Source of the DNA: Candidatus Heimdallarchaeota archaeon
Lineage (GTDB): Archaea; Asgardarchaeota; Heimdallarchaeia; Hodarchaeales; Hodarchaeaceae
Reading direction: 5' to 3'
DNA: 64,000 nucleotides
Assembly (NCBI GenBank): GCA_020353515.1
Contig: CP070695.1
Span: 1,419,216 to 1,483,215, forward strand
In this document: piece by piece, positions 1 to 10,664 of the stretch
How the letters are laid out: each line of letters opens with the position of its first letter
Position numbering within the stretch: position 1 is the first letter of the stretch
The notes under the pieces: generated by a model
Database searches by the model: none
Told to the model about the DNA's origin: nothing
Seen by the model: the letters and a program-made list of their open reading frames with translations, nothing else
Translations under genes and position numbers: made by a program

Positions 1-1381
1 TAAGAGCAATTTCTGGTGATGGTTGAAAACGTGTTGGCTCACTCAATAATTTCTCTAGCTCAATAGGAGAAATCCGTATAATATTTGCTAAATATTCAAT
101 CGATCTGAATTTTGAGGAAATCATACGCTTAACTTCTTGACTCCACCATTCCTCAGTCCAAGCAGACAATTCAATAGTTTCTGTAGCTGGAATATCATCT
201 GGAGAAAGTAAAATGTCTCCCATTTCCCAGATCTGAGTTACATCACTTTCTACTTCAATGATTCTGGTTAAGGATTCAATCCTCTCACTAGAACCATCTT
301 TAAATTCAACTAGAGGACCTGTTAGGGTTGAAACTGGGAAAACTGTAAGGGGTCGTTCCATGAAATCAATTTTAATGCTCGTGCCTGGAGACATCATTTC
401 TGAAAGATACATTGTCACTGGATGAACTCCCGCGGCACCTTGGCCCGTGTTACGTGAATAGCCATATCTTAATCTAAATCCTCCAGGTTTTCCTGATCTT
501 GAGAGTAAAGGCTGTGTCCCACGAACCTCGTTTCTTCCAAATTCATGTTTTTTCCTTCTTATCCCTTCAAAAGGGGGTACAAGCCATTCCCACTCAGGAA
601 TACCTGAAGCTAGACGAAGATGAGCGATTGAGTTGATATTATCAATTATTTTATCAAAAGCAACACACATACCCATTCGCAATCTATTTGTCATATTTGG
701 TAAATTTCGATATTTCTTAACTTCAATTCGTTCATACGCTTCCCCAGAAATCTCAACACCGATATTTTGTACTAAAAAGTTGATTAAGTCTTTTCGTAAA
801 TCCCAAGAACGATCATTCATTTTAAAGTAAATTTCTATTTCTTCAACATATCTATTTATCAGTTCTGGGGACGGATTATACCGATTAAGATGTAAAACAT
901 GTCGTATATAATCAGCAATTAGAACTACTAGTCCAACAGTCTCTCCAGTTACATAACGTACTGTATTGGAAAAATATATGGTTAAGTGGTTTGATTTAGA
1001 ACCAATTGAAATCTTTGGAATGCTTTCATGAGGAACTGAGATCAATCCTTGACTTAAAATCACTAAAGAGCTGTGTAGCGCCATTAGTATAAGATTCTCA
1101 CGAGTATCTTTTACAAATCGTCCATTAACAATCTGTTTGGCAATATCTGCAGCTAAAAGAAGAGGACTTTCATGCCAAGAGAGATTTGAAGGGAGATATT
1201 CTTCTAATTTCGGAATATTTAGAATTGCTCCTATCTTCGCTTTTGAAGTAAAAGTAAGTTTGGATTCTATTTTGGATTGAGGGTCGAGCTTTCGGGCTCT
1301 TGCTTGTGTTGCTAATTGAACTTGAGTTTTAAGGACGTTTTTTATATTTTGAAGATATTCTAGAAACTCTTTTTCTATCAT
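1..1381 (-). CDS. DNA polymerase D large subunit (DP2/PolC) homolog, highly divergent; N-terminal 460 aa, runs off the window edge
   Basis: Translated by hand, not in the ORF track. ATG at 1381 with an AGAGGA SD-like site, open to position 1. DP2 landmarks in the right order: ARARKLDP, LIADYIR, RYVEEIEIY, YRNLPNMTNRLRMGMC, WEWL, PGGFRLRYGYSRNTG, GVHPVTMYL, GPLVEFKDGS, GDILLS, EEWW. Confidence 0.9.
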   Translation of the reverse strand, partial: MIEKEFLEYLQNIKNVLKTQVQLATQARARKLDPQSKIESKLTFTSKAKIGAILNIPKLEEYLPSNLSWHESPLLLAADIAKQIVNGRFVKDTRENLILMALHSSLVILSQGLISVPHESIPKISIGSKSNHLTIYFSNTVRYVTGETVGLVVLIADYIRHVLHLNRYNPSPELINRYVEEIEIYFKMNDRSWDLRKDLINFLVQNIGVEISGEAYERIEVKKYRNLPNMTNRLRMGMCVAFDKIIDNINSIAHLRLASGIPEWEWLVPPFEGIRRKKHEFGRNEVRGTQPLLSRSGKPGGFRLRYGYSRNTGQGAAGVHPVTMYLSEMMSPGTSIKIDFMERPLTVFPVSTLTGPLVEFKDGSSERIESLTRIIEVESDVTQIWEMGDILLSPDDIPATETIELSAWTEEWWSQEVKRMISSKFRSIEYLANIIRISPIELEKLLSEPTRFQPSPEIAL

Positions 1382-1387
1382 TTCCTC

Positions 1388-2110
1388 TCACGATAAAATA
1401 TGAACACCATTCATCAAGGTTACATTAAGTATGCCCAGATTATCTAGGTTGTTTTCCCCCTCAAAGTAATATATGCCAGTATAGTCTGAACTGGAAGAGG
1501 GAATAAGATAGTGAGTAGTATTAAAGATATAGATTGAAGAAGCATCTACGTTTTCGAGCTGTTTTCCTCTTGATTGTTGAATGATAACTTTATTACCCTG
1601 AATTTCAACACGTCCAATAAAAACAATAGAAAAGGCTTCATCAATGGTGAACGTAGACGAGACAGCACTCATCCTCAAATGCAGTTCTGCTTGAATCTGA
1701 CTAGAATAAACAGTTCCGAAGCTGTCTGATACATTCCCATAAGGAGCTAATTGTGCGCTAAGATTGAAGTTGTGATTAGATAATTGGAATTCTGAAGTAA
1801 CCCCTCTCGCAGAGTAGAGTGTTTCGATTCCATTTAAAAAATCATTTATTCTAGTGATGGCTGTACTGGGAGTCAATGTTGTACCATTCTCAGAGTATTC
1901 AGTTAAAATTAGTTCCAAGTAATTCTGAATTTCACGTTTTGAGTCCAAGTATGGTTCTCGTAAGGTTTCCCGATCAAATTCGATTCTTTCGGCTCCAAGA
2001 TTCATCAAAGCAGAGGTCATCATTACAACATAAACAGCTATTAACATCGTTGCTAAGATGAACATCTGACCTCTATGTTTTTTCGAGTATTTGAATCCTG
2101 GAATTCCCAT
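1388..2110 (-). CDS. Pilin-like protein with class III signal peptide
   Basis: KKHRG|QMFILATMLIAVYVVMM: basic leader, RG|Q cleavage site, hydrophobic helix; lies in the pilus operon. Confidence 0.75.
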   Translation of the reverse strand: MGIPGFKYSKKHRGQMFILATMLIAVYVVMMTSALMNLGAERIEFDRETLREPYLDSKREIQNYLELILTEYSENGTTLTPSTAITRINDFLNGIETLYSARGVTSEFQLSNHNFNLSAQLAPYGNVSDSFGTVYSSQIQAELHLRMSAVSSTFTIDEAFSIVFIGRVEIQGNKVIIQQSRGKQLENVDASSIYIFNTTHYLIPSSSSDYTGIYYFEGENNLDNLGILNVTLMNGVHILS

Positions 2111-2626
2111 CTAGAATTTCTCCCATAAATATAGTTGTACCAGATATTGCGTAGTATATTGCCCAAACGTGGCTGAAGTAAACGAACCTAAATGGTAATT
2201 CGCCACAACTCCTTTTCCTCCTTGTTGGAGTGCAACAAGGGCTGTTGAAGACCCAATAACGCTAAAAAAATCTTCATTAATTGTACCATTAACTATTTCA
2301 TGAGCAATTAGGGCATAGTCAATATTTTTAGACACTATAGTAGTAATATATTCATTCAGTAGATTTTTGTAACTTAAAAATTCCTGTTCATATCTAGTGT
2401 CTCCATAAAGATATATAACAGGTCTTAATAATCCTGCTTCATCTGAAGCTGCAAGAATATCTGTTGCTGTTTGATCCAAACCAGTAAGATTTGAATAAGA
2501 CGATAAGGTCTGATTTGTTGCCCCTATCAATAGAAGAGCAAGAACAAGCATTAATGCTACTGAAACAAGTGTTTCTGCAATCTGTAGTTGTCCTCTATGT
2601 TTATTCATTTGTTCTATTTGCTCCAT
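2111..2626 (-). CDS. Minor pilin-like protein with class III signal peptide
   Basis: KHRG|QLQIAETLVSVALMLVLALL. Confidence 0.78.
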   Translation of the reverse strand: MEQIEQMNKHRGQLQIAETLVSVALMLVLALLLIGATNQTLSSYSNLTGLDQTATDILAASDEAGLLRPVIYLYGDTRYEQEFLSYKNLLNEYITTIVSKNIDYALIAHEIVNGTINEDFFSVIGSSTALVALQQGGKGVVANYHLGSFTSATFGQYTTQYLVQLYLWEKF

Positions 2627-3774
2627 AAGGTTAATTGACAGCTCATTAACGTACCTCTGACAATAATGGGATAGAATTTTGATAACATTGATTTTGTTCT
2701 GGTACCAGGAATTTCTTCTCCAAATACCTGGTTAAATATCCCACCAGTCGAAACACGATCAAGAATCACAGGATATGATCCTATTTTTACTTGATACTGG
2801 TTATCAGTTATAGCAATACTGAGAAAGGCAACCAAACCTTCATTCGGAATTGAAACTGTCTCATTGCCATACGAGGCTGTTTCTAAATTTATAGTTTTTT
2901 TCGAGTAGCCCGATGTGGTATTTTGATATATGATAGAGAGAAAATGCGAATCAGGACTTATTGGTAAATTATCTGATGCTAAAAAACTAGTAGAATTGAT
3001 ACCTCCTCCCCAAATAGTTGTACTTGAAGATGGACCAATGAAAACTACTTCAGAAGTTGGATCATTGAAACTCCAGTTCATACACCAAAGAGGACCTTTT
3101 TCTACAATGATAAATACTATATGTTCTCCCCCTGGGACATTTTCAGTGGGATTTGATAGCTGGAGAGAAGTTTCTCCGTTGGAATTAGTTAATGTTGCTC
3201 CTTCAGGAATCACATTGCCATTAGTCAGATCAATGGTAAAGAAATTAACTAAAGCATCTGCAATAGATATATTATAAAGATTTTTTACATTTACTTGAGC
3301 GAAATTTGTAGAAGAAGCATTTACTTCTGCATTTAATAAAGGATAGAATCCTAATCGGAAATTAAAATCCCTATCTAAACCGATTGTCTCCTTAAGAGTG
3401 TCATAATCAAACATTGTGTATCCTGATACACCAGATGAATCCTTAAACGTTAATCGCGCTATTTTTGCACTATCTAAAACAAGATATGACTGTGCATTAC
3501 TATCCGCTAGGCCAAAAGATGCTGGAAGTGATTGATGATAGCCCCAATCAAGATCTCCATCCTCAAAAAGTAATTGACGACCTAAGATATCTAACTCCTC
3601 ATAGGTTATGATTTCCCTTGAACTGGTATTTATACCTGTTTGTACATTAATAACAAGTAAAATTAACTGCGATAACATAAGTAAGAAGAGAAAAAGACTC
3701 ACAACAAAGTCGACAGCTCTAATCTGTCCACGGCGTCGTTTTTTAAGTCTTGGAAAGTTCATCTTGTTACCCAT
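2614..3774 (-). CDS. Large pilin-like/adhesin protein with class III signal peptide
   Basis: KKRRRG|QIRAVDFVVSLFLFLLML followed by a beta-rich extracellular region. Confidence 0.75.
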   Translation of the reverse strand: MGNKMNFPRLKKRRRGQIRAVDFVVSLFLFLLMLSQLILLVINVQTGINTSSREIITYEELDILGRQLLFEDGDLDWGYHQSLPASFGLADSNAQSYLVLDSAKIARLTFKDSSGVSGYTMFDYDTLKETIGLDRDFNFRLGFYPLLNAEVNASSTNFAQVNVKNLYNISIADALVNFFTIDLTNGNVIPEGATLTNSNGETSLQLSNPTENVPGGEHIVFIIVEKGPLWCMNWSFNDPTSEVVFIGPSSSTTIWGGGINSTSFLASDNLPISPDSHFLSIIYQNTTSGYSKKTINLETASYGNETVSIPNEGLVAFLSIAITDNQYQVKIGSYPVILDRVSTGGIFNQVFGEEIPGTRTKSMLSKFYPIIVRGTLMSCQLTLWSK

Positions 3775-3804
3775 TTATCGATGTAAATAATCCATTTAAA
3801 CTCG

Positions 3805-4260
3805 CTAAGATATGACATCCTCGGTAGAAGAACCAACATTCGCGACCTCAAGTTGAATAACTATCTCTTGGATACGATCTTTTAATTCTAACATTGTTGT
3901 TTCCAATTCTGTCAATTGTAATCCCTTCTCTAAGAGAGAGGTGGCTTGTGAAATTAGTTCATCAGCTTTCTGGGTTTTATCTGTCTTCATTGTTGAGGTT
4001 AGCTCTGTTAAATTATTCATTTTTTTCATAATTTCGGAGATATTGTTTTCAATTTCAGAGATTCTTTTTTCCAGAGGGGCTAGATCAACTTCAACAGGAC
4101 CAGCTTGAGGAGCAGATACAGATTTTAAGGCTGGAGATTTGGGTGTTGCTCCACCTGTTCCCATCCCCTGAACCATCAAAAACTCCATATTGGTTAGTTT
4201 ATCTTCTAGAGCTGAAACTTTATCTAGTAATTCTGTGAGCATTTTTTCTTCTTTTCCCAT
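3805..4260 (-). CDS. Coiled-coil hypothetical protein in the pilus operon
   Basis: Heptad-rich L/E/K segments around a Gly/Pro linker; no TM helix. Confidence 0.65.
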   Translation of the reverse strand: MGKEEKMLTELLDKVSALEDKLTNMEFLMVQGMGTGGATPKSPALKSVSAPQAGPVEVDLAPLEKRISEIENNISEIMKKMNNLTELTSTMKTDKTQKADELISQATSLLEKGLQLTELETTMLELKDRIQEIVIQLEVANVGSSTEDVIS

Positions 4261-4283
4261 GAAAATCGACCTCGAATTACATA

Positions 4284-5282
4284 TTATACCAGACCAAATA
4301 GTGAGAAAATCTGTGAGATAATATCTGCTATTAGGATCTTAAAGATCACGTAGCAAATTATTAAAAGAATACAGGAATATTTTAGTCCAAGATTTGCATT
4401 TCCTTGCCCCATCTTACCTGCTATGAGACCTGCAAATATTGCTTCAACAACCATTAAATGGAAGAAGATTAATTGCATTCCTGCAACATTAAATGGCAAT
4501 GCTGCTGTTAATGGTTGTTCTTCTGATACTGCTTCTACCATGTTAAGAGCTAAGGTTTGGAAGAAGGAAATGAGTAAAATGATCATCACTAACGAGAAGA
4601 CGATATATGAAACAAAAATTATCCAAGTGAATGGTTTCATCGACCCAAGACGTTCCCTTTTTAATCCAAGAACTTCTGATACGTGTCTATGAGCAGAATC
4701 GAATACATCCTCAATGGCTCCTCCTGAACGTTCAGCCTCTAAGATTAATAGTGATGTTCTTCTCATCAGGGGAGTATCTGTAATTTCCGTTAAACTTCGA
4801 AGTGTTTTACTAAAAGGGATTCCCCAACTGATCTTGGCTGCCATTTTTTTCAATTCAGGAGTAAGAGCTCCGTAATTGTGCTTACTTGCTGACATGATTG
4901 CCCTTGGCAATGGAAGACCAGTCTTTTGAGCGTCAGAAACCTCACGTAACAAGGATGGGATATTTTCATCAATGTTGTCACGCCATTTTTGGTCGGAATG
5001 ATATGCCCAAGCTGGAATAACAATTAAGACAAGAATAGCTACAACAGTTATGTCAATAACATCAAAGAAATTGACAATTGGATCTCTGATAACCTCACTT
5101 ACTTTGTCAAGATAACTGTTATCCATTGGATCTCCCTCTTCTTTTATGGGAGGTTCTACTGGAAAAATGTGATTTAAAACTGGGATATAAAAGTAGAAAA
5201 AGGCTGTTCCAGATGCTATTATGAAGAAAAGTATCGATATAATCCAGATCCACCGTTCACGTTTTTTTGTTAATTTTCCCAT
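4284..5282 (-). CDS. Type II secretion system F-family membrane platform protein (TadC/FlaJ-like)
   Basis: IDENIPSLLREV...YGALTPELKKMAAKISWG...EAERSGG, several TM helices, GLIAGKM. Confidence 0.9.
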   Translation of the reverse strand: MGKLTKKRERWIWIISILFFIIASGTAFFYFYIPVLNHIFPVEPPIKEEGDPMDNSYLDKVSEVIRDPIVNFFDVIDITVVAILVLIVIPAWAYHSDQKWRDNIDENIPSLLREVSDAQKTGLPLPRAIMSASKHNYGALTPELKKMAAKISWGIPFSKTLRSLTEITDTPLMRRTSLLILEAERSGGAIEDVFDSAHRHVSEVLGLKRERLGSMKPFTWIIFVSYIVFSLVMIILLISFFQTLALNMVEAVSEEQPLTAALPFNVAGMQLIFFHLMVVEAIFAGLIAGKMGQGNANLGLKYSCILLIICYVIFKILIADIISQIFSLFGLV

Positions 5283-5303
5283 TGCTTGTAACCTCTTTTT
5301 CTA

Positions 5304-6212
5304 CTAAACCTCTCGTGAAATCGTAGAGATCAACAAAATCATTACAACTAGCAAAATAGGCATTATTAAGTAAGTTAATAGCAACATTATGACAGTTAAA
5401 ATTTCTATCTCTGGTGAAATAACAGCAAGAATTGCGATAATAACAACAAAAAACAAAGGAGCAACCACTCCTAAAATCATAAATATTTCCGCTAATATTC
5501 CTAACTGCTCAATGAACTCCTTAGTTTCCTCTTCCTTCATTTTCATTAAAGCTTTTGCTTCAGCAGAGAGATAAAAGGTTAAATCTCCTCCACTTGTGAC
5601 CGTTGCTGACATTCCATCTAAAAATTTAGAAAATCGTTCGGAAGGGGATCTTTCACTTGCAGTACGTAACGCCTTTAGAATGTCATATCCAAAGATTTCG
5701 ATATCCCTTGTAATTCGCTTACTCTCTTTAGAGATTTCTGGAGCAACTGAGGCTTCTCCTGCGAGTGAATAAAACAATCTGTTTGGAGGGACTCCTGAAC
5801 TCGACATAGCGGAAAGATATGAAGCAGTAGAAGGTAATCCTGACTCTATCAATATTTTACGATCAGCGGCCTTCATCTGTGGCCAATAGAGGAATGGTAG
5901 ATATGCAACAATGCTTATTATTACCCCAATGACTATTCCAAGTAAGATGGACGGAAAAAGCTGATTTTGAATATTTGCAGCTTGAAGCAATAGTATACTG
6001 GTTGTTATAATGATAAAAGACAAAATTCCCACAAGAATCGAACTAAAAATGGCACTTCCTAGATAAGCACGAACAGAAATATCCATACCTGCTTTTTTTA
6101 GACTTGTATTTAGTCTTTCAAAGCGTCCTTTTTCAATCCAGGGTTCAAGAAATCTGCCAAATCTGAGATAACCGACTCTTCTAATGACCTTACTCACAAG
6201 TAAACACTCCAA
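5304..6212 (-). CDS. Type II secretion system F-family membrane platform protein (TadB-like); true start may be the GTG a few codons in
   Basis: YLSAMSSSGVPP, IEIFGYDILKAL, SERSPSERFSKFLDGM, SGGDL. Confidence 0.9.
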   Translation of the reverse strand: MECLLVSKVIRRVGYLRFGRFLEPWIEKGRFERLNTSLKKAGMDISVRAYLGSAIFSSILVGILSFIIITTSILLLQAANIQNQLFPSILLGIVIGVIISIVAYLPFLYWPQMKAADRKILIESGLPSTASYLSAMSSSGVPPNRLFYSLAGEASVAPEISKESKRITRDIEIFGYDILKALRTASERSPSERFSKFLDGMSATVTSGGDLTFYLSAEAKALMKMKEEETKEFIEQLGILAEIFMILGVVAPLFFVVIIAILAVISPEIEILTVIMLLLTYLIMPILLVVMILLISTISREV

Positions 6213-6218
6213 ATGATC

Positions 6219-7727
6219 TTAAATTGCTTTTAACTCTCTTTTTGCACGATCAACTGTTTCAAGAGCACTCTGGTAATAACTGTTAATTACTTCAGACACC
6301 TGAGAAAAATGGGCTAACTTCTTTTTAACCATCCACCTTAAGATGGTTTTTCTGCGCTCAAGTTCATCGAAAACTTGGGCCTCAGTCAAACCTTGAGCTT
6401 CTTGAATACCTTCTAAGGCGTAGGATCGGCCATAGTTGATAAATGCATCCTCACGAGCATTCCATCCAAAAACTTTGTTCGTTATCAATTCTGTCGTTAC
6501 AGGATCTATTCCTACGATTTCAGTGCATTCGATCACTCGTCGTACTTGTTTGTCACCACGACGGACCTTTCGAAGGACGAGAAGGATATTTAAGGTTTGA
6601 ATTAAAGTTCTTGGAATATTCATTGGTTCATTCTCTAGACGTCTAATAGTTCCAGTTACGCTATCACCGTGAATTGTCCCCATTCCAGTGTGACCAGTAG
6701 CCATTGCTTGAAAGAGATTATACGCTTCTGCTCCTCGTACTTCTCCAACAAAAAGGTAATCTGGTCTTTGGCGAAGTGCTGCACGTAGAAGGTCATACAT
6801 TGAGACTTCTCCTCGACGAGTTCCATCAGCTTCACGCCCTCCATAACCTTCTCGTGCCACAGCAGGAATCCAGTTTTCATGGGGAATATGAAGTTCTGCT
6901 GTGTCTTCAATCGAAACGATTTTCATTCCAGGTCTGATATACATAGCGAGACTATTGAGGAGCGATGTTTTTCCTGCTGCTGTACCTCCTGCAATAACAA
7001 TGGAATTTCTATTTTCTAAGATATACCATAAGAACGCAGCCAAATCCTCATCAATGGTGTTAAAAATTACCATATCTGTTATTGTTAATGGATCAGATCG
7101 AAATTTTCTGATAGTAAAAGTACTCCCTCGCTGGGTTACCTCACGACCATAGGTAAGCTGAAGTCGGCTGCCATCTGGTAATGCAGCATCTAGTAAAGGT
7201 CTCGCTACACTGATATGGCGTCCAGCTCGTTGAGCTAATTTGATGATAAATGCATCCAAGTTGTCCTCCTCCTCAAATTTAACATTTGTTTGGATACTTT
7301 CAAATTTCCGGTGCCAAATATAAACAGGAATTCCTACTCCATCACAAGATATATCTTCGACATTGTGGTCCTTTAGCATTGCATCAATCGGACCGAATCC
7401 GACGAAATCACGAGTAATATGATAATTAATCTTATCGAAGGTTTTCTCATCTAATTTTAGTCCATAATCTTTAGCAATTCTAATTACCTTAGATCTAAGG
7501 TAATCACGTGCAACCTCAGGATTTTTAAGGACATTGAAATCTACATCCAATTCTTCTTCGAGAATATTTTTAATCATATCTAAGATTTCTTTCTCTTTAG
7601 TGCTTAAAGGAACTTCAACAACAGTATATTTAGTCTGTTTGGTTTCAGGGTCGGTTGCAACCAACGCATAACTGAAGGGGGGGATTAATGGATATGTCTC
7701 TCGAATTAGACTACTTGATTCTGCCAT
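6219..7727 (-). CDS. Type IV pilus/secretion ATPase (FlaI/VirB11/TadA family)
   Basis: Walker A GGTAAGKTS, SIEDTAEL, ALRQRPDYLFVGEVRG, TGHTGMGTIHG. Confidence 0.96.
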   Translation of the reverse strand: MAESSSLIRETYPLIPPFSYALVATDPETKQTKYTVVEVPLSTKEKEILDMIKNILEEELDVDFNVLKNPEVARDYLRSKVIRIAKDYGLKLDEKTFDKINYHITRDFVGFGPIDAMLKDHNVEDISCDGVGIPVYIWHRKFESIQTNVKFEEEDNLDAFIIKLAQRAGRHISVARPLLDAALPDGSRLQLTYGREVTQRGSTFTIRKFRSDPLTITDMVIFNTIDEDLAAFLWYILENRNSIVIAGGTAAGKTSLLNSLAMYIRPGMKIVSIEDTAELHIPHENWIPAVAREGYGGREADGTRRGEVSMYDLLRAALRQRPDYLFVGEVRGAEAYNLFQAMATGHTGMGTIHGDSVTGTIRRLENEPMNIPRTLIQTLNILLVLRKVRRGDKQVRRVIECTEIVGIDPVTTELITNKVFGWNAREDAFINYGRSYALEGIQEAQGLTEAQVFDELERRKTILRWMVKKKLAHFSQVSEVINSYYQSALETVDRAKRELKAI

Positions 7728-7870
7728 TTATTTGTAGCTCCTACTTTTTTTCTCTTCTAGATCCAAGAGTGATGTTTTTTTTTAGATTATTTTTTCCTAG
7801 GTAAATATTTCCTACTGATAATATTTTTTTGATTTGGATAAAGGTAATCATAACTTTTAGTTTAATCTAC

Positions 7871-8323
7871 TCAAGAAATGGTTATTACGATATTATTTCC
7901 GTTTTTTTCTATATGTAAGGCCAATAGAGTATTTACACTTTCAAATATTGAATCTGATGTTTCAATAATGTATTTTGGGGCCACTGTAAAGATTTTTATC
8001 TGATCAACGTCTCCATTCGAGGAAAAACCGTGTAAAATGATCTGATTGTCAGAGGAGTTATAGATCTCAATAGAATACGGAGACATTTCCCCTATGACAG
8101 CTGGTAGTTCTAGTTGTTGTTCGATCAACTGACTACCGTCTGTTGAAAGAAGTAGTGATTGCTGAATTTGTTTTTGAATTAAATCAAGAATTCGTGTCAT
8201 TTCCACATCTGCAATATTCTCCCGAAATTGGTCGCTTAATGTTAAGAACATGAGATTTGTGATAATAACCATGTTCAAACCAAGAATAAAGATAACAATA
8301 AATGTGATATATTGAGATGCCAT
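7871..8323 (-). CDS. Pilin-like membrane-anchored protein
   Basis: N-terminal hydrophobic helix (ASQYITFIVIFILG) and a LELPAVIG..PYSIEI pattern; operon context. No basic leader, and an in-frame TAA lies two codons upstream of the ATG. Confidence 0.6.
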   Translation of the reverse strand: MASQYITFIVIFILGLNMVIITNLMFLTLSDQFRENIADVEMTRILDLIQKQIQQSLLLSTDGSQLIEQQLELPAVIGEMSPYSIEIYNSSDNQIILHGFSSNGDVDQIKIFTVAPKYIIETSDSIFESVNTLLALHIEKNGNNIVITIS

Positions 8324-8349
8324 ATATTATTCCACGATTTTTGTATTAT

Positions 8350-9291
8350 TTAAGATGTTGAGAGACCTACTTCATATACTAATGTTTGAACCACAATATT
8401 GAAGTATTGAAGATTAAGCCCTTGTATGGTTTGTGTACTCCAAATGGATGTAGTTAATGTTCCTGATGGTTGAGCATTATCCCAAACTAATTCTAAAGCT
8501 CCAATTGAGCTGTCTTCTGGTAAAGTATATGGAGTAGAATAGCTATTATAAGAATGAATTGTAATATGTTGATATTGGCTTCGAATAGCTTCAAAATCCG
8601 CCGAAAGCAGGATCAAAAAGACCTCAAAGCGTATTTCGGGATCTGGTTGGGTTGAAATAGTTAAATAAATAGATATTCGATAGTTCAATGTTACATGGTG
8701 TCTTCTATCATCGAGATGGCTTAAAGTAAGGTTAGTTAGATCGAGATAATCAGTTGAGGAAAAAGTACCTGAAACAAAAATTGGATCACGAATTTTATAG
8801 GGGTCTGGTCCTGTTAAATATTTCGTGGTTCCACGAGGAATGACAGCTCTCGGACTGTTATAGGTCCAATCTAGCACTCCGATCGTTAGAAATCCAGTGA
8901 TATCATCAGTTAAATCTTCAAATAGGTTATATACGAGGTTTTCATCTTGATCAAGCAACCTTAATCGATAAGAATATCGTGCAGGATCAAATTCAACCCG
9001 GCCAGCAGGTTTATTAAAGAGAACAGTCCGAAAACCTCCAGGAGCACCACTTTCACTTATCAAGGATTTTATTGTTGTATCCAACTCTAAGAAACTATTA
9101 CTAGTTGTTGCTATCGCTTCTTCACTCTGAGCCTGTTGTATATATGGGACAACTTGAACGAAAGTGATCATGACTCCTGTAATGATTAGACCGAATATGA
9201 TAACTGTCGCTAGAACAGGAGAAACACCACGTGTTGTCCGAAAAATTGGGTTAGTTTTTAGTTTCAGGTTAGTGATAATAGCTTTATTCAA
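8350..9291 (-). CDS. Archaeal type IV pilin (archaellin/pilin N-terminal domain)
   Basis: RTTRG|VSPVLATVIIFGLII matches the archaeal class III signal consensus (RG|xSPVIA). Confidence 0.88.
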   Translation of the reverse strand: MNKAIITNLKLKTNPIFRTTRGVSPVLATVIIFGLIITGVMITFVQVVPYIQQAQSEEAIATTSNSFLELDTTIKSLISESGAPGGFRTVLFNKPAGRVEFDPARYSYRLRLLDQDENLVYNLFEDLTDDITGFLTIGVLDWTYNSPRAVIPRGTTKYLTGPDPYKIRDPIFVSGTFSSTDYLDLTNLTLSHLDDRRHHVTLNYRISIYLTISTQPDPEIRFEVFLILLSADFEAIRSQYQHITIHSYNSYSTPYTLPEDSSIGALELVWDNAQPSGTLTTSIWSTQTIQGLNLQYFNIVVQTLVYEVGLSTS

Positions 9292-9629
9292 GTTCGATCC
9301 CTTTCTATCGTTTTAAATGCATAATCACTATAAACAAGTCATTCTTCACGGATATATTATCAAAGATGTAATGATTTAAGGATTTTTGTATTCCCCAGAA
9401 AATTACTACACATTCTAAATTAACTCTTCTAAAGGGCAAAAAAATTCTTGTAAAGAATTAAGGGGAAGCCATAAAGAATTTACTCCAAAGAATAGAAAAG
9501 TCTTTCATAAAATTTCCTATTTTGTTTTATTCCTCAAAAGCAGAAAAGATTTAAGGAGTTCATAGGTTCAAAAAAATGACTTTTCTCAATAATCCTATGA
9601 GAGAATCTCCCTCTAAAACTGGTATGATA

Positions 9630-10664
9630 ATGGCACCGAAGAAAAAAACTGAAACTATTGAAGCAACAAAAACAACAAAAGTTGATAAAACGACTAAAGC
9701 TGTGACATCCATTACGGATTTACCTGGAATAGGCCCCTCCACAGCTGCAAAATTAGTAGAGGCTGGTTTCTCAACCTTAGAATCCATTGCAACTGTTTCA
9801 GTTGGTGAGTTGACCTCAATCGCAAGTATGGGTGAGAAAACGGTAAAAAAGATAATCGAAGCAGCACGAGAAGCACTTGATATCGATTTTGAAACTGCCA
9901 AAACTGTGTTGGCTCGTCGTAAGGATTTGGCTAAAGTTACGACTGGTAGTCAAAAACTAGATGAACTATTTGGTGGTGGAATTGAAACTGGATCCGTAAC
10001 GGAGCTTTTTGGCGAGTTTCGGACAGGAAAAACCCAAATTGCCCACCAACTCTGTGTGACCGTTCAGTTGCCCCGTGAAAAAGGTGGATTACGAGAAAGT
10101 GACAATTATCCAAAGGTAGTGTATATCGATAGCGAAAGCACGTTTCGTCCAGAAAGAATACTCTCAATGGCAAGTCGTTGGCAGGATGAATTAGATGAAG
10201 ATTTGTTGTTAGAAAACATTTTACACGGACGTGCTCACAATTCCGATCACCAAATGGTATTAGTAGAAAAAATGATTAAGGATTATTTGCCTACTGAGAA
10301 TGTTAAATTATTAGTAGTTGATTCTTTAATTTCACATTTTCGTGCTGAATATGTTGGAAGAGGGACTTTAGCAACACGGCAACAAAAGCTTAACCAACAC
10401 ATCCACACCATTCTCCGAGCTGCAGAAATTGGGAATCTAGCTGTCATTGTCACAAATCAAGTCCATGCCAAACCTGACCAATTTTTCGGAGATCCCACCC
10501 ATCCAGTAGGAGGACATATCGTTGCTCATGCAGCGCAAACGCGGGTATACCTTCGTAAATCAAAAGGTGAACGTAGAATAGCCCGAATAGTTGATAGTCC
10601 TCTCCTTCCTGAAAACGAAGCAGTCTTTGGATTAGCGGAAAATGGGATTATAGATGTAACATAA
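9630..10664 (+). CDS. radA: DNA repair and recombination protein RadA
   Basis: HhH N-domain LPGIGP, Walker [34 protein letters not shown]. Likely start MAPKKK at 9630; the ORF track opens at 9576. Confidence 0.97.

Follow-up and report, generated by a model that had tools for sequence, protein, structure and literature searches.

We analysed a 64,000-nucleotide (nt) stretch of a Candidatus Heimdallarchaeota genome (contig CP070695.1:1419216-1483215; hereafter, the window), in which a type IV pilus operon runs directly into the gene for DP2, the large subunit of the family D DNA polymerase (PolD), and a radA gene is transcribed divergently from the other end of the operon. The genome is a single 4.94-Mb contig, 96% complete and with 35% GC, and domains were called by Pfam and NCBIfam profile searches of open reading frames (ORFs) from the window and the genome. 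We think it probable that two separate things, a core pilus system and the inactivated sole DP2 of its host, were joined here by a rearrangement in one genus of the Hodarchaeales. A preliminary description of the sequence had listed nine co-oriented pilus genes (an ATPase, two platform proteins, five pilin-like proteins and one coiled-coil protein) leading into DP2, with radA divergent at the far end, and this layout is confirmed: the minus strand holds ten co-oriented ORFs in window 1-9291, with the pilus genes at 1388-9291, and the plus strand holds one ORF at 9576-10664.

The window edge cuts the DP2 gene, of which the N-terminal 460 codons lie inside (1..1381, minus strand) and match the N-terminal and central DP2 domains. 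The full gene extends from window position -1939 to 1381 (contig 1417276-1420596) and encodes 1,106 amino acids (aa), with all DP2 Pfam domains present in order (PF03833, E = 2e-42; PF24844, E = 3.6e-70; PF24846, E = 8.6e-80), and the protein aligns over its whole length to the solved DP2 chains of Pyrococcus abyssi and Thermococcus kodakarensis. Like these canonical proteins (PDB 6HMS, 6T8H, 6KNB and 5IJL), it has the expected length class and the N-terminal, central and catalytic domain order, and it retains the Zn fingers and the C-terminal DP1-binding region; the C-terminal Zn-finger cysteines C1027, C1030, C1042 and C1045 are invariant in the genus. No other DP2 match occurs in the genome, and relatives also carry one each. 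Because each genome has a single DP2, here of full length, the gene is an ortholog, neither a paralog nor a fragment. The preliminary description had called it a degenerate paralog: the second part of that label fails, since there is no further copy, and the first is borne out for the active site, so that the gene is the only DP2 of its genome but not a canonical one.

The loss of the polymerase centre is visible at several motifs. With the catalytic triad D956/D958/D960 given in P. abyssi numbering and taken from the alignment, the P. abyssi sequence RRNCDGDED reads TRNCNGDID here, giving a triad of N-D-D; NCNGDID is the form in most of the genus, and the first catalytic Asp is replaced by Asn in every genus member. 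In a subgroup of the genus at ~50% identity the second Asp is also gone (NGATD, NGVSD or NGAND), leaving N-A/V-D. Further motif losses are LAPHTSAG to LSPFSMVA, RTERPGKG to KIDFMERP, RMGRPEKAK to KIIRVEKSE and FDSTD to FDQTN. We label the other Heimdallarchaeia families f2-f5, f2 being the sister family of the study genus within the Hodarchaeales; in f3-f5, DP2 is canonical and keeps all these motifs. Among positions invariant in the canonical set, 153 of 319 are retained in the genus, and many others are fixed to a new residue genus-wide. The protein also falls below both NCBIfam equivalog cut-offs (NF003103, 782 versus 1,269 bits; TIGR00354, 688 versus 702 bits), a further departure from canonical DP2 beside the substituted aspartates and the missing PHTSAG and TERPGKG. 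Judged from these motif changes, polymerase activity has presumably been abolished.

Within the genus, DP2 identity drops to 45-64%, against 89-95% for the pilus ATPase; comparisons between families whose DP2 is canonical give 43-50% for DP2 and 59-64% for the ATPase. In two close pairs, the ratio of nonsynonymous to synonymous substitution rates (dN/dS) is 0.27 and 0.09 for DP2 and 0.04 and 0.02 for the ATPase. Intact DP2 frames of 1,106-1,130 aa are found in about 20 species, and 260 columns, the Zn-finger cysteines among them, are invariant across the genus. DP2 evolution is accelerated in the genus, and the gene is nonetheless under purifying selection. In one relative (G015, C1:2667766-2671077), DP2 contains a single in-frame TGA, which may reflect a sequencing error or recoding, or mark the onset of decay. 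In other Heimdallarchaeia families, canonical DP2 genes form open frames of 1,347-1,747 aa, and their match to the genus DP2 is broken in two near residue 870, where the catalytic motif lies. This suggests that the canonical genes carry an intein there; the genus's own DP2 has no insertion at that motif.

An inactive DP2 has been reported for the Heimdall_B3/LC3-like group (Kazlauskas et al. 2020, NAR; PMC7544198). The genus resembles the group in belonging to the Hodarchaeales, in having a DP2 without an active polymerase site and in the co-occurrence of several PolB genes (four here); DP1 in the group is divergent, yet active-site motifs are kept in some members. In the part of that account used here, the position of the gene behind a pilus operon is not described, and the GEHD form of DP1 motif III found here is a further difference. 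One of the four PolB-family matches in the present genome (contig 4569873-4570274) sits in a 1,441-aa frame with a weak PolB score (36 bits) and may correspond to the PolB reported for Hodarchaeales that is Pol-epsilon-like and has a Zn-finger tail.

The small subunit, DP1, is present in single copy in this genome and in 19 of 21 genus genomes. It lies at contig 2720725-2722344, 1.3 Mb from DP2 and convergent to a cdc6/orc1 gene (in the numbering of that locus, DP1 occupies 7726-9345 and cdc6/orc1 6450-7694). Of its phosphoesterase motifs, I, II, IV and V are retained, and III is changed from GNHD to GEHD genus-wide. A predicted complex of DP1 (residues 130-539) with the DP2 tail (950-1106) scored 0.90 (best control, 0.00), a level that 58 of 80 solved complexes attained on a benchmark, as did 2 of 110 mismatched pairs; contact agreement between runs was at least 74% and the predicted local distance difference test (pLDDT) value of the partner at least 68. 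Since PolD complexes have already been solved, this score may reflect recall, and it speaks for a PolD-like interface, not for binding as such. The model thus suggests that DP2 keeps a PolD-like interface for DP1, which it may still bind, and such an interface, together with the location of DP1 beside cdc6, fits a replisome-linked role. In Pyrococcus, the PolD operon combines the PolD genes with cdc6 and the RadA paralog RadB; DP1 here still adjoins cdc6, but DP2 is detached from DP1 and cdc6, and the RadA-family gene is found on the far side of the pilus operon.

At its present location, DP2 is separated from the last pilin gene by the 6-nt spacer GAGGAA (1382..1387, minus strand), and the junction reads TGA-GAGGAA-ATG, the distance given in the preliminary description. 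The Shine-Dalgarno-like site that had been placed in this gap is a partial case: a GAGG is present, but only 2 nt separate it from the ATG, and the more distant species of the genus do not have it. The adjacency is not specific to this assembly, as a synteny comparison recovered the pilus-DP2 junction in all 17 readable genus loci, even where DP2 identity falls to 49%; the two genes are 6-7 nt apart or overlap by 4 nt. A scan for an internal promoter over the final 160 nt of the pilin gene detected no conserved AT-rich block beyond codon constraint, although such a scan is weak at 35% GC. Given a tight, conserved junction and no conserved block at the end of the pilin gene, the pilus genes and DP2 are likely to share one transcript and to be translationally coupled. 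A search for sequencing runs containing window 1-9500 returned sediment DNA metagenomes and no RNA run. A T7 run occurs ~140 nt past the DP2 stop.

This junction is one part of a much longer conserved arrangement. In every genus locus with sufficient flank, radA is divergent from the nine pilus genes, which are followed in the same direction by DP2 and a gene for a CBS protein, with an NFACT gene facing the latter. The collinear block measures at least 24 kb and extends at least 12 kb beyond DP2 through six more unrelated genes; collinearity is lost right after radA. Because unrelated genes share the block, conserved gene order is the rule in this genus and is no sign of function.

Comparison with other families separates the two components. 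In f2, DP2 is 22-25% identical, its catalytic motif is still more eroded, and the gene either follows a beta-eliminating lyase gene or opens its own unit; no pilus genes were found within reach on the f2 DP2 contigs, which are short (8-9 kb). A degenerate DP2 away from pilus genes indicates that inactivation is wider than the adjacency and independent of it. In f3, the same nine pilus genes are split between two convergent units that lack DP2, and an Hsp20 gene follows the ATPase. The pilus module can thus do without DP2, which is >800 kb from the pilus locus in both closed f3 genomes. In f4 the module is disrupted in a different way. Also in f2, a 1,001-aa Rad50/SMC-like ATPase is encoded divergently from the two-gene unit of which the degenerate DP2 is the last member.

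The pilus itself is widespread. An ATPase ortholog is present in one copy in 78 of 83 Heimdallarchaeia genomes, with 89-98% identity among genus members and 55-67% class-wide. The kind of pilus was judged from pairwise ATPase scores and gene content, which do not settle its clade: the ATPase scores 422 bits against Archaeoglobus fulgidus GspE (2OAP), 302 against FlaI and 164 against bacterial CpaF. An archaellum was considered and rejected, as no archaellin (PF01917) match occurs anywhere in the genome and the ATPase is nearer to A. fulgidus GspE than to FlaI; against the ArlI profile it reaches 431 bits, under the cut-off of 550. Euryarchaeal pilus systems also have two TadC-like genes and a coiled-coil component (Makarova, Koonin and Albers 2016, PMC4858521), and the operon resembles the non-archaellar type IV systems of that survey in an ATPase closest to A. 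fulgidus GspE, two platform genes, several pilins with class III signal peptides and a coiled-coil cytoplasmic component. Unlike them, it has an Asgard host, and its prepilin peptidase gene is ~45 kb away. The locus encodes a non-archaellar archaeal type IV system, in which the ATPase and a split ArlJ/TadC-like platform are joined by the coiled-coil protein and five pilin-like proteins. The system belongs to the single-copy core of nearly all Heimdallarchaeia and most likely builds a surface filament.

In the reading we favour, DP2 would have left the cdc6/DP1 region in this genus to become the 3'-terminal gene of the pilus operon, where it would probably be read from the pilus promoter with its translation coupled to the last pilin gene. 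Its polymerase centre would have been inactivated and the protein kept by purifying selection. Most likely it persists in a complex linked to the replisome or to repair, as the non-catalytic partner of a DP1 that retains most of its nuclease motifs. Pilus and DP2 would then have no functional tie, a view consistent with DP2-free pilus modules elsewhere and with the pilus-free degenerate DP2 of f2.

Other readings depend in part on radA. The gene (9576..10664, plus strand) encodes a RadA/Rad51-family recombinase of 362 aa with helix-hairpin-helix and Rad51 domains and ranks third by score among five Rad51-family genes in the genome. The four others, at contig positions 1486193, 3812393, 1125965 and 3961488, score 247-315 bits; one of them sits just beyond the window end. 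In two genera of f3, the best-matching radA lies 3.4-7 kb from pilus genes, with intervening genes that are unrelated and differ, and in f4 and f5 radA is not near the pilus locus. The association of radA with the pilus is therefore a mild regional link, not an operon. The radA/pilus spacer contains the motif AATACAAAAATCCTTAAATC (20 nt; 9373..9392, minus strand, in the pilus sense), 82-101 nt upstream of the first start codon of the operon. Its 15-nt core occurs once in the genome and is nearly invariant in 12 aligned genus loci, and the rest of the spacer is variable (246 to 524 nt). From its position and conservation, the motif is a candidate for the promoter of the operon (a TATA-like box with a transcription factor B recognition element, BRE) or for an operator.

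One alternative, which we regard as improbable, is co-regulation without physical coupling. By analogy with Sulfolobus, where UV-induced Ups pili go together with homologous-recombination repair, the pilus, RadA and DP1-DP2 might form a stress or DNA-damage regulon in which DP2 serves repair. The nearly invariant motif in the divergent promoter region, the proximity of radA to pilus genes in two families and the retention of most DP1 nuclease motifs speak for such a regulon. Set against these, a regulon search with the 15-mer core found no second occurrence in the genome, so that no regulon is visible, and f4 and f5 have no radA near the pilus locus.

Less probable still, and in our view distinctly unlikely, is the proposal of the preliminary description that DP2 deals with pilus-imported DNA. 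Here the pilus would import or exchange DNA; the polymerase-dead DP2, perhaps with a nuclease-competent DP1, would have been recruited into the transcript of a class-wide pilus beside a RadA paralog, to bind or process the incoming DNA; and RadA would recombine it. If true, this would be an archaeal uptake or exchange pathway with a retired replicase as its DNA-handling part. The tight, conserved coupling of the pilus-DP2 junction, the divergent radA sharing an intergenic region with a conserved, genome-unique motif, and the newly conserved residues of DP2 all agree with it. In Sulfolobus, Ups pili work with the Ced importer, and the locus here is similar in combining an archaeal type IV pilus with nearby recombination genes; unlike it, Ups/Ced is not known to include a polymerase subunit, and what is available here is genes alone. 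Both the likeness and these differences apply equally to the Epd-type pili of Methanococcus maripaludis, in which type IV pili are required for natural transformation (PMC10133366). Searches that the preliminary description had proposed for ComEC (PF03772) and DprA (PF02481) gave no match in the genome; as naturally competent archaea are also without ComEC (PMC10133366), this absence decides nothing. The comparative data leave the proposal unsupported: the adjacency is confined to one genus, inside a large collinear block that also takes in the unrelated CBS-protein and NFACT genes; the pilus module of other families is complete without DP2; the degenerate DP2 of f2 lacks pilus neighbours; radA is one of five paralogs; and DP1 is 1.3 Mb off, beside cdc6. 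Nor was a membrane DNA channel candidate identified, ComEC and DprA having been searched and no search having been aimed at Ced or TctA/OB-fold proteins.

That DP2 is a functionless, decaying remnant heading for loss is barely credible: its lost active-site motifs, fast sequence evolution and the in-frame TGA of one genome would agree with decay, but the full-length frames of about 20 species, the dN/dS of 0.09-0.27 and the 260 genus-invariant columns do not, and a pseudogene is ruled out by the dN/dS values and intact frames.

Some observations nevertheless weigh against the reading we favour. The junction is kept tight in 17 of 17 loci, which is more than mere neighbourhood requires, and with no promoter-like block in the last pilin gene, expression of DP2 probably depends on the pilus promoter. 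Many DP2 substitutions are fixed to new conserved residues, a pattern that suggests a new function beyond simple loss. The presence of a radA-family gene near the pilus in both the genus and f3 points to a somewhat deeper link between pilus and recombination, and natural transformation in archaea can depend on type IV pili (PMC10133366).

Should DP2 have been joined to the pilus by rearrangement, as we favour, its dependence on the pilus promoter would be a curiosity of gene order, which matters only if expression or interaction ties DP2 to the filament. The broader interest lies in PolD. Eukaryotes, whose closest known archaeal relatives include the Hodarchaeales, lost DP2 and kept relatives of DP1 as B-subunits, and the fate of PolD in this order thus bears on the origin of the eukaryotic replisome. 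A DP2 that is apparently dead yet conserved, that still suits DP1 and that no longer adjoins the cdc6/DP1 region offers a useful intermediate for such study.

The individual pilus genes are all on the minus strand. The first gene of the operon (8350..9291) encodes a pilin-like protein of 313 aa with the motif TRG/VSPVLATV and a DUF7289 match (E = 1.3e-5), and the next (7871..8323) a small pilin-like protein of 150 aa with a weak DUF7266 match. The assembly ATPase (6219..7727; 502 aa) matches T2SSE at E = 7.9e-38, its nearest solved relative being the A. fulgidus GspE mentioned above. The two T2SSF platform proteins (5304..6212 and 4284..5282) cover the N-terminal and C-terminal halves of ArlJ/FlaJ, aligning to ArlJ positions 5-243 and 303-542 (of 555), respectively. 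They are followed by the coiled-coil protein (3805..4260; 151 aa), which has coiled-coil matches only and no signal peptide and is presumably cytoplasmic. A large pilin-like protein of 386 aa (2614..3774; motif RRG/Q), with a weak Ig-like match, is possibly a tip or adhesin subunit. The remaining two pilin-like proteins both carry the motif HRG/Q, with a weak DUF7288 match in the first (2111..2626; 171 aa) and a weak DUF7261 match in the last (1388..2110; 240 aa).

All five pilin-like proteins have an N-terminal hydrophobic segment, and in four of the five a class III signal motif (RG/Q or RG/V, then a hydrophobic helix) can be read directly from the sequence. Their DUF7261, DUF7266, DUF7288 and DUF7289 matches are all under the Pfam cut-off; the f3 ortholog of the 150-aa protein matches DUF7266 at E = 3.8e-6. 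The genome has one A24 prepilin peptidase match (PF01478; contig 1374501-1374800), ~45 kb from the operon and outside it. Immediately upstream of the pilus platform genes in f3, and divergent from them, lies a gene for a Ras-family small GTPase (PF00071, E = 3.6e-51).

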